IMG/VR virus record: IMGVR_UViG_2690316285_000006
Strand: one strand, 5' to 3'
Source: a virus
Lineage: Duplodnaviria; Heunggongvirae; Uroviricota; Caudoviricetes
DNA: 5,920 bases
Shown: positions 1 to 5,920 of the stretch, piece by piece
Layout of the letters: each line of letters opens with the position of its first letter
How positions within the stretch are numbered: position 1 is the stretch's first letter
Position numbers and translations under genes: made by a program
The notes under the pieces: model-generated
Told to the model about the DNA's origin: nothing
Database searches by the model: none
Seen by the model: only the letters and a program-made list of their open reading frames with translations

Positions 1-1623
1 AATGATCCCTGTAACTTTGCTTTTGGTAGTAGTTCTGAATCAGAAGTGAAGAAATTCAAGGATGGTAAATTTCTTCCAGCTATTGAAACCAGTTCAGTAC
101 TAAAGCCGTTAGTAACCGATAAGAATGATAAGAACGCCGCCAATAACTCTAAACAAACACAAATGGTGAACGGTACTTTTATCTATTGGTTGAACCTCAA
201 CACGCCGGGGAACCTTCGCGGTATCACAACACGCTGTGTTCTGTTAGATGAGGTCAGTAGCTGCGAAATCACTGATGAAGGGAACCCAATCAAACTGGCA
301 GAAGCACGTACCAGTACCTTCGGTAGTGACTCACTGGTGGTTGTATCTTCCACGCCATTGTATAAAGACGATTTAATCAATGCTGAGTACAACCTCAGTG
401 ATAAACGTAGGTACTTTGTTACTCACACATGCGGTCATGAATATACTTTTGAATGGGAACAAGTAGCGTTTGAATTTAAGCAATTAGAAAATGGTAGATC
501 CATTCCTGATAGTACTACTACTCGTTTGTTATGCCCTCATTGCAATGAGGGAATAGATGAACATACACGGCATCAGATGGTTGATAATGGTCGATGGATT
601 GCAACTAATCCAGATGGGGAACCGGGTGTAGTAGGGTATCAAATCAGTAGAATGTATTCACCTCTGAATACTATTACTGAAATGGTTTCAAAGTTTGCTG
701 ATGCTCTATATAACTTCAATCTTCAAACCTTTTACAATAACGAATTGGGCTTGCCATTCGAAGATGAGTATCAAAAAGAATTAGATATTCTCCAATTAGA
801 ATCCCTACGAGAAGATGAATTTAACCTTTATAAAATTCCTGAAAGTACCTTAGCGTTGTGTATTTCAGTTGATCAGCAGGGTGATAGGCTGGAAAGTCTG
901 CTTTTAGGTTTTGATGAAAAGAACATTTATGTACTTGGGCATGAGTTTTTCTACTCCCACGATTGTACGAAGATTGAAGCCCCAGCTTGGAAGGATTTAG
1001 ATCAGTTTTGCCGTCAGGATTTCAGTACTGTATCAGGTCGCATAGTACCTACACTGGCTGTGTTCATTGATGCAGGGAACGGTAACGCTACGGATACTGT
1101 GAAAAAATTCACTACACGTTGGAGTAAGTATCATCCGATCAAGGGTAGCAGCTCCACTACTGGTGAACTATTCAAGACCAGTACTCAGGCGGGGTACAAA
1201 CTACAGATCCTAAACGTACATGAACAGAAGAACACGATACGCCGCCTCCTGAACCTGATGCTATCCAGTGAGGCAGATAACGCCCCGGTTAAGCTCCGCT
1301 TCAGTAGTACCTTACCATCAGATTTCTTTGAGCAACTTTCAGCAGAGGAGTTAAAACCCGCTGGTGGTAAGTTGGTATGGCGATTAAAGAAAGGTCAAAG
1401 AAGAAATGAGGCTTTAGACCTAATCTGTTATGGAATGATCGCCATAGCATATGCCCAATCAAAATTAGGTACTCAACCATTCAGGAAGTTACGCGATTAT
1501 AAAGCACAGGAAACCACTAAATACGAGATAAATAAAGTAGAAGAACCAAAACCAGAAACAGTACAAAAACCAAAACGGAATAGACGTACTGGAATGGGAT
1601 CAAACTGGTTCGGTAAAAGATAA
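1..1623 (+). CDS. terL: Terminase large subunit, lambda gpA-like (5'-partial; C-terminal part of ATPase domain plus nuclease domain and C-terminal tail)
   Basis: Frame 1 is open from nt 1 with no stop before the first ATG at 46, so the gene starts upstream of the window; the track ORF 46..1623 is the in-window remainder. Walker-B-like VLLDEV at nt 238-255, so Walker A should lie upstream. Cys/His cluster HTCGH ... CPHC (Cys codons at 430-432 and 532-534) and RRNEALD at nt 1399-1419 match motifs I recall from lambda gpA. RNase-H-like nuclease acidic motifs ISVDQQGD (nt 862-885) and FIDAG. Basic C-terminal tail. Stop TAA 1621-1623. Confidence 0.88.
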
Positions 1624-1626
1624 GGA
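1622..1626 (+). promoter_or_regulatory. Shine-Dalgarno-like AAGGA, 8 nt upstream of ATG 1635, overlapping the terminase stop codon
   Basis: Sequence taAGGAtatcaaaaATG read directly. Confidence 0.6.
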
Positions 1627-1634
1627 TATCAAAA

Positions 1635-2165
1635 ATGACACTTCTACCAGAAAAGATCTACATGGTATCGAATCCCATGGATCTAACGGTATTAGTACCC
1701 GCTGCTACTATTCTTGTTATTAGTTTTACATCATCTGGAAAAAGTACCTCATTAGATAATTTAAATGGTAGTACTTCAAAAGAATTTACGGTTGTATTAG
1801 ATATGAGTACAGCACAGGAATTACTATTCTGTACTCAAATATCTAATGGTCAAACCAGTACTTTTACTTCTGAAGTCATTAATCCATTACTTTATACTTC
1901 TGAGTACTCCCAATTAAAACAGATGATCAGTGAAATTGATCAGGTTATAGCTAATAAAATTGCAGGCGGTGCTAATTACTCAATAACAATTAATAATAAG
2001 ACTCTTGTAAGTGAATCATTATCATCGCTTGAATCAATGCGGGAACGCTATGTAAAACGTGCTAATGCTCTATTTGTGAAAATGAATGGCGGTACTTTCT
2101 CTAATGGCGGTAAACCAATCAAGAGTATTACGGTTTTCAGGCCTAAGCCAGGGAGTACACGCTAA
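1635..2165 (+). CDS. Head-tail joining protein with gpW-like C-terminal domain and ~90-aa N-terminal extension of unknown function
   Basis: Sits between terminase and portal, the lambda W position. The C-terminal ~80 aa ([22 protein letters not shown] / [14 protein letters not shown] / [21 protein letters not shown]) follows the gpW helix, beta-hairpin, helix pattern. SD AAGGA upstream. Stop TAA 2163-2165 overlaps the next ATG (TAATG). The N-terminal part is Ser/Thr-rich with a hydrophobic stretch (residues ~16-31). Confidence 0.6.
2151..2155 (+). promoter_or_regulatory. Shine-Dalgarno-like GGGAG, 9 nt upstream of portal ATG 2165
   Basis: Sequence ccaGGGAGtacacgctaATG read directly. Confidence 0.5.
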
Positions 2166-3673
2166 TGTTCTGGAATAAGAAAAATAAAAATTCAGAAACT
2201 AAACCCAAGAAGATTAAACAGGAACGTTCCTTAAAACAAAGTACCTTAAAACGAGATCTACAGGCAGTACGCAACACATCAGTAATGAACTTCGGATTCA
2301 ATTCAAACTCAGGCAGCAATATCAACTTCCTTCTGATGAAAGCACTACCTACCTTCAGGGCTTTCTCACGTGATGCAGTACTTAAGAATCCTATTGGTCG
2401 TAAGTACATGAACCTATCGGTAGATGGCGTTGTAGGCTCTGATGGCCTGTACGTTAAACCTTCAGTAGAGATTGACGGTACTGAAGAAGAAATCAACGGA
2501 ATCAATCTAACCTTGGAAAAGCTCTTTGACCGTTGGGCATATGATGCTGATCGTTTTAGTGTTGATGGCTCATTAAGTTTTGACCTGTTTCAGCAGAACG
2601 CAGAGAAGGTAAGGGTCCAGGATGGTGAATGCTTTATTCGTATACACAATATTAATAATACCATCAAGTTAGAAATTCTCGATACGGTTCGTTTGCTTCA
2701 GTTAAATAATCAACGTTTGAGTAATGGTAATTATATTAGTAATGGTATTGAATTTGATAAATGGCATAAGCCAGTTAATTACTATTTCTGTAAATTCGAT
2801 CCTGTTACCTATACTTATATCACTGGCGATTATGAAGTAATTCCCGCTGCGGAAATCTGTCACTACTTTATTGCTGATCAACAAGGCCAGGAACGCGGAT
2901 TGCCGGACATGGTTGCAACTTCCAAATTAATGGAAGATCTCAAGAACTTCACTGAGGCTGCGTTAACTGCGAAACGTGTATCTGCATCGTCAATGGCTTT
3001 TATTACCAATAATAACGACACTACCAGTACTGATCTGTTAGGGGCTGATGAACGAGAAGAAGTTACACCAGTATATACAGAGTATTTTGAAGCTGGCTTT
3101 ATTGGTGAGTTAGCCGAAGGGCAGGATATTAAAACTGTTACACCTACTAATGGTGTTGATGGGATTGATCAATTTACCAATGAATTGATGAATCAGATCT
3201 CGATGGGTCTGAACATAACAAAGCAAGCCTTATTATCTGATACATCCAATGCTTCATTTAGTGCAAGCCGACTTACTGAGAAATTACAACAAACTACATT
3301 CCGTACCCGTACTAATGTACTAATCAGTAAAGTACTTAAACCAATTTATATCGCCTGGTTAAAGAACGAAATGCTAAATAACAATAAGTTAAATCTAAGT
3401 TTCTCGAGCTTTGATGATCTTATTTGTGCTCGGTATATTTCTCAAAAGCCAATTAGTTTAGATCCTGTAAAGGATATACAGGCTGAACTACTCCAGTTAG
3501 AAGCAGGTATTAAATCTAAAACACAGGTTATTGCTGAGTTAGGCGGTGATCCAGTGAAGGTATTAGCAGAGGTACAGGCAGAAAAGGATAAAGAAAATAA
3601 AAACAAGGAAGTAATCCAGGATGGAAATGAAAAACCAGAAGAGGGAACTAACGAAACCCCTACAGGCGATTAA
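2165..3673 (+). CDS. Portal protein
   Basis: 502 aa ORF immediately after the terminase and gpW-like genes and before the prohead protease; size and position are typical for a portal. Motif [15 protein letters not shown] resembles a conserved portal segment as I recall it. Acidic, Lys/Glu-rich C-terminal tail. Start ATG overlaps the upstream stop. Confidence 0.8.
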
Positions 3674-5466: not shown

Positions 5467-5471
5467 AAGGA
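5467..5471 (+). promoter_or_regulatory. Shine-Dalgarno-like AAGGA, 7 nt upstream of ATG 5479
   Basis: Sequence taataAGGAttagataATG read directly. Confidence 0.6.
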
Positions 5472-5478
5472 TTAGATA

Positions 5479-5802
5479 ATGAGAGTATTTAAAGATACGC
5501 AGTGTGATGCGTTTCTAAATGCTTTCGGTCAGTCTATCCAAACTTGTACGGGAAGTACTTTTACAGGAATAGTAGAAGTACTTCCCGTTTCTATTGAGGC
5601 GGCAGGTGGATTTATCGAAAGCGTGGAAACATACCTAACAATCAGAAAGGACGATCTAATAACCGCAAACGTGGCAATTGGTACAGTACTAATCATTGAT
5701 GGTGTAAACCAGACAATCTATAACATTGAAGATGATCTATCAGGTATGGTTAATTGCTATTTCCGTACTTCTGCTGGTGCTTCATTTGCAGAGGACTACT
5801 AA
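5479..5802 (+). CDS. Head-tail joining / head-tail attachment protein, lambda gpFII-like
   Basis: 107 aa ORF directly downstream of the capsid gene. The segment IRKDDLITANVAIGTVLIIDGVNQTIYNIEDDLSGMVNCYFRT parallels lambda gpFII as I recall it (VRTDEV...GDTLTIGEENFWVDRVSPDDGG...LWLGR). Good SD. The assignment is by remembered motif pattern only. Confidence 0.55.
   Translation: MRVFKDTQCDAFLNAFGQSIQTCTGSTFTGIVEVLPVSIEAAGGFIESVETYLTIRKDDLITANVAIGTVLIIDGVNQTIYNIEDDLSGMVNCYFRTSAGASFAEDY
5791..5795 (+). promoter_or_regulatory. Shine-Dalgarno-like GAGGA, 8 nt upstream of ATG 5804
   Basis: Sequence GAGGActactaatATGATG read directly. Confidence 0.55.
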
Positions 5803-5803
5803 T

Positions 5804-5920
5804 ATGATGTTAGTACAAAAAGTACGGAATACGATGAAGCAGCTTATCAATGCTACTAAGAATCTGACAGTATCACGTGATGTTGATGTGGATTTGCCCC
5901 TATATTTCCAGACATCTGTT
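5804..5920 (+). CDS. Hypothetical phage structural protein (3'-partial, runs off the window); position suggests a tail-completion or neck protein
   Basis: ATG 5804 (second ATG at 5807) lies 1 nt after the upstream stop, with a GAGGA SD; the frame stays open to nt 5920 (39 codons: MMLVQKVRNTMKQLINATKNLTVSRDVDVDLPLYFQTSV). It is absent from the ORF track only because no stop falls inside the window. No recognisable motifs. Confidence 0.45.
   Translation, partial: MMLVQKVRNTMKQLINATKNLTVSRDVDVDLPLYFQTSV

Follow-up and report, generated by a model that had tools for sequence, protein, structure and literature searches.

Several short DNA words are known to be held away from their chance frequency over whole genomes. 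Chi, the FtsK-orienting polar sequences (KOPS), the DNA uptake sequences (DUS) and the uptake signal sequences (USS) are 8-12 nt long, asymmetric and biased in orientation, and they are read by RecBCD, FtsK and uptake receptors. GATC, the site of the Dam methylase, SeqA and MutH, is a 4-bp palindrome that serves as a genome-wide mark on duplex DNA with density-dependent function, and the very-short-patch skew of Dcm and Vsr leaves CTAG depleted and CCWGG enriched. In phages, restriction pressure is known to deplete short palindromes. Here, an extreme remover of palindromes keeps one of them, GTAC, near synonymous saturation. The DNA in question, called the window below, is the whole stretch of 5,920 nucleotides analysed from the IMG/VR virus record IMGVR_UViG_2690316285_000006 (Caudoviricetes). 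It belongs to a family of enterobacterial prophages in which GTAC is abundant throughout, and this family-wide pattern suggests a function that reads GTAC.

GTAC counts and codon choice in the window

The initial annotation of the window had counted by hand about 68 GTAC sites where about 20 were expected, and this tally was accurate rather than inflated: the exact count is 68, against 20.6 from base composition (zero order). Its further estimates, about 18 AGTACT where about 2 were expected, AGTAC at about two thirds of the sites, and about 26 GATC, also stand close to the exact values, which are 19 AGTACT (~1.9 expected), 40 AGTAC, 33 GTACT and 29 GATC. A codon-preserving shuffle had been proposed as a possible refutation of the excess. 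In 2000 shuffles of synonymous codons inside each gene, with protein sequence and codon usage kept, GTAC reached 36.9±3.9 (z=8.0 for the observed 68), and 68 was attained in none of the 2000, so that the excess survives. AGTACT behaved in the same way (5.7±2.1 against 19 observed, z=6.5), whereas GATC was at chance level (28.2±3.2 against 29, z=0.2). Permutation of whole codons gave 28.8±4.8 GTAC. Among all 256 tetranucleotides GTAC is the top positive outlier in the window (z=7.7), and the top negative outliers of the same test are CTAG (0 against 17.8) and GCGC (0 against 8.4).

The sites occupy all three codon phases, 24 as GTA-C, 36 as xGT-ACx and 6 as xxG-TAC, and two more (5813 and 5822) fall in the following gene, of which only a stub precedes the insertion sequence (IS) IS2. 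This split, together with the equal enrichment of non-coding DNA described below, bears out the early view that no single codon pair is responsible. The codon choices themselves are telling. In the window, Ser is encoded by AGT in 20 of the 23 cases in which it precedes Thr, against 29 of 125 elsewhere; all 16 codons for Gly, Arg or Cys that precede Thr end in GT; and Val is encoded by GTA in 24 of the 29 cases in which a C-initial codon follows, against 49 of 100 elsewhere. Thus, the codon context is close to saturated, and the synonymous choice that creates GTAC is strongly preferred wherever the protein permits. The extended forms of the word lie as follows.

96, 511, 1024, 1180, 1770, 1857, 1903, 2377, 3026, 3331, 3812, 4197, 4412, 4641, 5174, 5220, 5554, 5577, 5685: starts of AGTACT
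1023-1030: CAGTACTG, the full 8-bp palindrome and the commonest 8-mer around GTAC in the family; copies also at 3025-3032 and 5219-5226

The signature across the prophage family

The family comprises about 40 loci (L001, L007, L010-L017, L019, L021-L027 and L030-L052), and word counts were made in a family pool of 244 kb. In this pool, GTAC occurs 2151 times against 848 expected, and AGTACT 644 times against 79.5. All family loci examined have 31-45% GC, GTAC at 2-3.5x and no GCGC, and AGTACT is mostly at 5-17x, being unenriched in a few bins and lineages. Sites are spaced overall at one per ~100 bp. The family has 8-9 GTAC per kb against 2.5 in the host, and for AGTACT the two are 24-fold apart. 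In the Shigella sonnei locus (21.5 kb), GTAC stands at ~3x and CTAG at 0 in every phage segment, and IS elements show no excess. The same pattern is found in two Escherichia coli relatives that integrate by a large serine recombinase, one intact in ybhA and one degraded between yeaG and mipA, and in these the composition changes abruptly at the junction of prophage and host. The signature extends to loci in Buttiauxella, Scandinavium, Pseudescherichia (two), Enterobacter, Phytobacter (two) and Pluralibacter, whose portal identities run from 94 to 42%, and also to Yersinia, Pantoea, two metagenomic members and 23 IMG/VR contigs, with Escherichia and Klebsiella among the hosts. When the same four core genes were shuffled synonymously, z was 3.3-7.6 in all 9 diverged loci. 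No cultured relative was found, as the best match to the portal among 50,697 phage records reaches 31.5%, and a search of the literature on phage over-representation of GTAC, AGTACT or CAGTACTG returned nothing relevant.

A host genome signature, one of the explanations first considered, is refuted by the flanks of the prophages. Over 63 kb of pooled host DNA, GTAC is at 0.63x, AGTACT at 0.46x and GCGC at 1.87x, and the IS elements within the prophages carry no excess. The enrichment had further been called unusual for a phage, and correctly so. In 57 other viral contigs of 25-54% GC, the observed to expected ratio (O/E) of GTAC is 0-1.44. A closer control is phage DCP80 (L020), which matches the family in head architecture and has E. 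coli as its host; its portal is 31% identical and its GC content 0.40. GTAC is at ~1x in this phage, which contains GCGC and instead lacks GATC. Low GC as the cause is ruled out by DCP80 and the 57 contigs.

Some side observations belong to these controls. In DCP80 (positions 1-25645), none of the eight 3-kb bins examined, 24 kb in all, contains GATC, where each would be expected to have ~10. The record is classed as Tevenvirinae, yet its first 25 kb are a lambda/HK97-like structural module, and it may be chimeric. Two unrelated IMG/VR contigs, L054 and L088, are nearly free of GTAC (0 against 65 and 3 against 54 expected), which is the usual direction of selection.

The signal resides in the DNA and not in the proteins. 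It had been proposed that selection might act partly through frequent Ser-Thr dipeptides. Dipeptide selection as the cause is refuted, since in the family non-coding DNA (2.59x) is as enriched as coding DNA (2.54x), which rules out codon-pair and dipeptide causes alike; all three codon phases are enriched family-wide. Rather, the constraint on DNA has shaped the proteins, as Ser-Thr and Val-Leu are elevated (O/E 1.59 and 1.46) against Thr-Ser (1.01) and Leu-Val (0.91).

The bases around GTAC are mirrored on its two sides, with A at -1 in 0.54 and T at +1 in 0.53 of the sites, and C at -2 in 0.34 and G at +2 in 0.32, giving C-A-GTAC-T-G. All of the most enriched 5-mers and 6-mers in the pool are sub-words of CAGTACTG. 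The 644 AGTACT compare with ~616 predicted from the flank frequencies, so that the two flanks contribute independently. Among words of the forms G-NN-C, N-TA-N and AG-NN-CT, enrichment is limited to GTAC (as a 6-mer, AGTACT), which rules out a wider GYRC or AG-NN-CT motif. There is no strand or orientation bias of GTAC: the flanks are symmetric, and no orientation is possible because GTAC is its own reverse complement. The early stress on AGTACT has to be narrowed. The selected core is GTAC, and the A/T flanks vary between lineages: in L048 and L049 (both from IMG/VR) GTAC is at 2-2.5x, and AGTACT falls below its own flank prediction (L048: 6 against ~14). The flanks thus appear as a secondary, reversible preference, and a ScaI/Eco255I-type enzyme that selects locally against AGTACT could account for the deficit in these two. 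Three described motifs were tried and rejected. The SlmA-binding site GTGAGTACTCAC has 0 copies, and G at -2 is disfavoured; LexA half-sites do not fit, as no preference for T follows CTG; and the classic pBR322 gyrase cleavage consensus has a 4-bp stagger GRYC, not GYRC.

The fate of single sites was followed by aligning four core genes of nine loci codon by codon and comparing orthologous positions with those of all 4-mers. Between close pairs GTAC is retained in 72% of cases, where the median 4-mer is retained in 50% (GTAC ranks 4 of 235), and between distant pairs in 37% against 20%. This retention is comparable to that of 4-mers containing ATG or TGG. In the closest triplet of loci, 9 gains and 9 losses of GTAC were counted. 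Accessory cargo genes have GTAC at 0.5-0.8x and GCGC at 0 against ~10 expected. Recent cargo is therefore without GCGC yet without a GTAC excess, which argues that the loss of GCGC is a hard filter and that GTAC accumulates slowly.

Within the S. sonnei locus, local peaks of 22-27 GTAC per kb lie at 14001-15500 and 3001-4000, in a tail-fibre gene with a Peptidase_S74 domain and in a cluster of small early open reading frames (ORFs).

Avoided palindromes and the genes of the window

GCGC is absent from the family pool, 0 against 335 expected, and the host has 7.5 per kb. The few GCGC in IMG/VR loci are confined to high-GC IS or host stretches, and even the phage-borne copy of ybhA has none. So complete an absence of GCGC resembles a strict constraint more than the usual avoidance. 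Other palindromes are avoided as well. CTGCAG, GAGCTC, CCTAGG, CCCGGG, CCGCGG, CGGCCG, GCCGGC and GGGCCC have a pool count of 0, and GGATCC, GGTACC, CAGCTG, GCATGC and TCCGGA one of at most 2; most other palindromes with at least four G/C are very rare. In the window, the only palindromes of this kind are CCATGG, CTCGAG and AGGCCT, one copy each. Many avoided palindromes are recognised by Type II enzymes that were originally isolated from Enterobacterales. No avoidance is seen for AT-rich palindromes or for the sites of EcoRI and EcoRV, and GATC is at chance in the family. The avoidance includes sites that contain GTAC itself, GGTACC (2 against ~48 expected) and CGTACG (6), and GTAC is thus apparently not chemically shielded.

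Two routes from avoidance to the GTAC excess were rejected. Shuffles that force out every avoided palindrome give 35.8±4.2 GTAC in the window against 68 observed, so the excess is not a by-product of palindrome avoidance. GTAC as a decay product of GCGC fails on numbers, ~335 missing GCGC against ~1300 excess GTAC, and the intermediates GTGC and GCAC are neutral.

The depletion of CTAG is patchy. CTAG is missing altogether from the Shigella, Pseudescherichia and Buttiauxella lineages and from certain segments of one genome, and it is near expectation in adjacent segments or other lineages (L007 10-13 kb and 19-26 kb against 26-40 kb; L014-L016, L048). Such a pattern suggests that lineages differing in their past selection on CTAG have recombined into mosaics. 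The members integrated in ybhA carry at their right end a ybhA-like pyridoxal phosphatase gene of their own, of ~280 amino acids (aa) (L009 12565-13404; L019 39426-40268) and 40-42% GC, which presumably replaces the host gene disrupted by integration.

The window is the head module (large terminase subunit TerL, portal, protease-capsid fusion) of an IS-riddled, decaying S. sonnei prophage, and its features are the following.

1-5889, no strand assigned: prophage DNA with the signature, by exact counts and codon-aware nulls
1-1623, + strand: large terminase subunit (gpA type), with PF05876 and PF20454 on the product
1360-1367, + strand: Chi site GCTGGTGG
1635-2165, + strand: 176-aa protein of head-tail joining type (phrog_5774, E=9e-11), family core, found in 11 of 11 loci
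2165-3673, + strand: portal protein, lambda-type (PF05136), with 166 homologues across Enterobacterales
3621-5465, + strand: fusion of prohead protease (S78) and HK97-type major capsid protein (PF04586 and PF05065)
5479-5802, + strand: 107-aa protein in head-completion or connector position, family core, found in 9 loci
5890-5920, no strand assigned: IS2 end (GGATTTGCCCCTATATTTCCAGACATCTG...), inserted in the next head gene; GTAC 0, outside the signature

The order gpA-type terminase, lambda-type portal and S78 protease with HK97 capsid domain confirms a lambda/HK97-like head module. Over 1-5889 there is one GTAC per 87 bp, and CTAG and GCGC are both 0. The GC content of the prophage is 39%, against ~50% in the host. 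Positions 122-5889 are 100% identical to the S. sonnei 53G locus (L001), and the portal is identical to that of S. sonnei 53G and of other S. sonnei assemblies. The terminase frame begins upstream, so that the window encodes the C-terminal two thirds of the protein. The gene is uninterrupted in the window, while in 53G another IS splits it at window position 122-127. The source is therefore another strain of S. sonnei type, whose IS load differs. The final 31 bases belong to the end of IS2, which interrupts the gene after the 107-aa ORF. In the family pool, GCTGGTGG is found 10 times on the + strand and 0 times on the - strand, with 1.3 expected; this single orientation of Chi indicates orientation-specific protection from RecBCD.

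What may keep GTAC frequent

We favour, with moderate confidence, the reading that GTAC is kept at ~3x chance by long-term selection on the double-stranded DNA of the prophage lineage. The selected unit is the 4-bp palindrome with its weaker dyad-symmetric flanks. Fitness would rise with the number of sites if a GTAC-reading factor worked on the duplex phage DNA over its whole length, and the GTAC-poor host would be largely exempt from such a reader. Since the motif is constant across members that share no early genes, the reader should be a protein that belongs either to the phage core or to Enterobacterales in general. No early-region gene common to the whole family was found, which leaves no early gene as the reader, and the head-centred loci share structural genes only. 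The only nucleic-acid enzymes of the core are terminase, serine integrase and a GIY-YIG nuclease, and the last of these is the prime candidate.

L007 40413-40868; L008 25398-25847; L019 36753-37181; L025-L027 and L030-L052 around 10001: stand-alone SegE-like GIY-YIG nuclease, ~148 aa

Its gene opens a lysis-proximal late block, followed by a basic ORF of ~200 aa and a holin with three transmembrane segments, and this block is present in all 29 members with right-end data. The protein matches PF19835 (E=1e-16), and its residues E106 and N121, which by their spacing align with the Glu and Asn that are catalytic in I-TevI, are invariant. A sequence search of the PDB with the GIY-YIG profile gave no matches, and no methylase partner conserved with the nuclease was found in the family. 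DCP80 has an endonuclease VII gene at the analogous position. A predicted structure of the basic ~200-aa protein (pLDDT 51) was discarded. A link of the nuclease to GTAC, or to the missing GCGC, is conjecture; it might for instance be a sequence-dependent debranching or nicking enzyme that needs a nearby GTAC before packaging.

Several points weigh against selection through such a reader. As the two flanks act independently, they lend no positive support to cooperative dimer binding or site arrays. Site spacing is near geometric, its sole periodicity being the 3-bp one of coding DNA, and neither helical phasing (10-11 bp periodicity) nor arrays of GTAC sites were found. Outright cutting at GTAC would destroy the phage, so the role of the nuclease must be conditional, on DNA structure or by nicking only. 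Viruses with distant homologues of the nuclease (at most 39% identity) do not carry the signature. Finally, a drive towards GTAC by repair or gene conversion would look the same as selection in comparative data.

A bolder version, which we regard as speculative and rather unlikely, is that the family writes a self/non-self barcode into its sequence, no GCGC and many GTAC, instead of modifying bases. The GIY-YIG nuclease, perhaps with the adjacent basic ~200-aa protein, would read the barcode and attack host or competitor DNA bearing GCGC, with no need of a methylase, and GTAC-dependent debranching, nicking or protection would be limited to phage DNA. The absence of GCGC and a core nuclease without a partner methylase make such sequence-encoded discrimination directly testable.

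Also unlikely is that GTAC or AGTAC is the target of a protective covalent modification, methylation or a bulkier one, so that more sites give more protection and density is selected. A modification target had been among the first suggestions for GTAC, and a GTAC-specific methyltransferase was to be sought elsewhere in the genome. What was found is an accessory methyltransferase carried as right-end cargo.

L008 27509-28219; L025 12467-13183; also L031, L033, L039, L040 and L052: NPPF-type gamma-class DNA methyltransferase (phrog_3820)

Its recurrence, in 7 of the 29 members with right-end data, speaks for the idea, as does its own gene, which has 13 GTAC against 2.6 expected (5x), a density that marks it as a long-standing resident of the family. 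GTAC is at 2.96x in members that carry the enzyme and at 2.44x in those without it, in a comparison of members that are not phylogenetically independent; for palindromes other than GTAC no clear difference between the two groups was seen. However, the enzyme is missing in three quarters of the members, including the intact L007 and L019, which keep the signature, and no modification gene of any kind, methyltransferases included, was found in the family core. GGTACC and CGTACG are almost absent, an avoidance that shielding would make needless; KpnI, for one, is blocked by GGTm6ACC. One lineage avoids AGTACT. The enzyme is ~50% identical to the products of genes in Krischvirus, Slopekvirus and Aeromonas T4-like phages, and a T4-like phage with a 53%-identical homologue has GTAC at 0.57x and AGTACT at 0. 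No specificity could be assigned to the methyltransferase via Pfam, NCBIfam or PDB. On this evidence, a modification target is not supported.

A context-specific bias of mutation or mismatch repair, similar to that of Dcm and Vsr, could turn near-GTAC words into GTAC with no benefit to the phage. Such a drive would mimic selection in its equal effect on coding and non-coding DNA, in site retention and in amino-acid changes, and the depletion of CTAG shows that repair-type skews can act on family genomes. We nevertheless consider it quite improbable. None of the one-step neighbours of GTAC is depleted, those from which transitions would draw included (ATAC 0.85, GTAT 0.92, GCAC 1.08, GTGC 1.12), and the precursors of gained sites are spread over all four positions and include transversions (GAAC, CTAC, GTTC, GTAA). 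The change from Ser TCN to AGT preceding Thr takes at least two steps. The host chromosome, which shares the same cells and repair, is depleted of GTAC, and no Vsr-like gene was seen in the Pfam listings of the family.

Marginally less probable still is a purely physical selection, in which the deformable TA step of GTAC is a hinge that eases packaging, supercoiling or the binding of architectural proteins. According to a remark on deformability in a paper on gyrase, the TA step is the most deformable step in DNA. A hinge would explain why there is neither a specific reader gene nor a need for phasing. Other flexible TA contexts, however, are unenriched (CTAG 0.29, TTAA 0.80, ATAT 0.83), the 10-11 bp periodicity is absent, and DCP80, with homologous head proteins and similar GC, has no excess, nor have the 57 low-GC viral contigs. 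The symmetric preferences at -2 and +2 are also hard to derive from hinge mechanics alone.

That the word acts in RNA or single-stranded DNA, with self-complementary GUAC or AGUACU copies pairing together or being read by an RNase, is very unlikely. The palindrome would be present in transcripts of either strand, and intergenic DNA is also transcribed because nearly all core genes lie on one strand, which counts for this view. A single-strand reader, however, needs no symmetry, and the flanks are mirror-symmetric within a few percent; longer self-complementary stretches show little synergy, as the AGTACT count against its flank prediction indicates.

An ordinary artefact of codon-pair or dipeptide bias, amelioration towards the host or avoidance is hardly credible, for all that Ser-Thr and Val-Leu are frequent and many other palindromes are avoided, because the synonymous shuffle, the equally enriched non-coding DNA, the GTAC-depleted host and the avoidance simulation exclude translation, host signature and side-effects of avoidance as causes.

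Selection on duplex DNA, if this is the cause, has maintained GTAC density across hosts of several enterobacterial families and is strong enough to alter proteins. The implication is either an activity, so far undescribed, that reads sequence on phage DNA or a repair drive of a new kind. In practice, a GTAC-rich, GCGC-free and low-GC composition is a cheap marker for an uncultured, widespread prophage family in Escherichia, Shigella, Klebsiella, Enterobacter and related genera.

Compared with the systems named at the outset, restriction-site avoidance in phages is seen here in an extreme form, as in the loss of GCGC. GTAC is by contrast the most over-represented 4-mer and AGTACT the most over-represented 6-mer, and avoidance is not what generates them. 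The resemblance to Dam and GATC lies in the 4-bp palindrome as a mark on duplex DNA; the differences are that neither a conserved methyltransferase nor a reader was found here, that GATC is at chance, and that restriction sites containing GTAC are avoided. With the Dcm/Vsr skew the family shares a shift of coding and non-coding DNA alike and the depletion of CTAG, whereas GTAC rose without depletion of precursors or transition-only gains, and the host sharing the repair machinery is GTAC-poor. In phage T4, endonuclease II, itself a small GIY-YIG enzyme that stands alone, is combined with hydroxymethylcytosine and spares the phage's own DNA. The family likewise has a small stand-alone GIY-YIG nuclease in its core and DNA distinct from that of its host, but the distinction would be one of sequence content and not of a modified base. 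Chi, KOPS, DUS and USS are similar in that a short motif stands far above chance replicon-wide, overrides synonymous choice and is conserved in the lineage. Two marks of a functional oligomer, codon-aware over-representation across the lineage and retention beyond background, are found for GTAC. Unlike those longer, oriented motifs, GTAC is a 4-bp palindrome with a candidate reader only, and it marks the phage against a motif-poor host.

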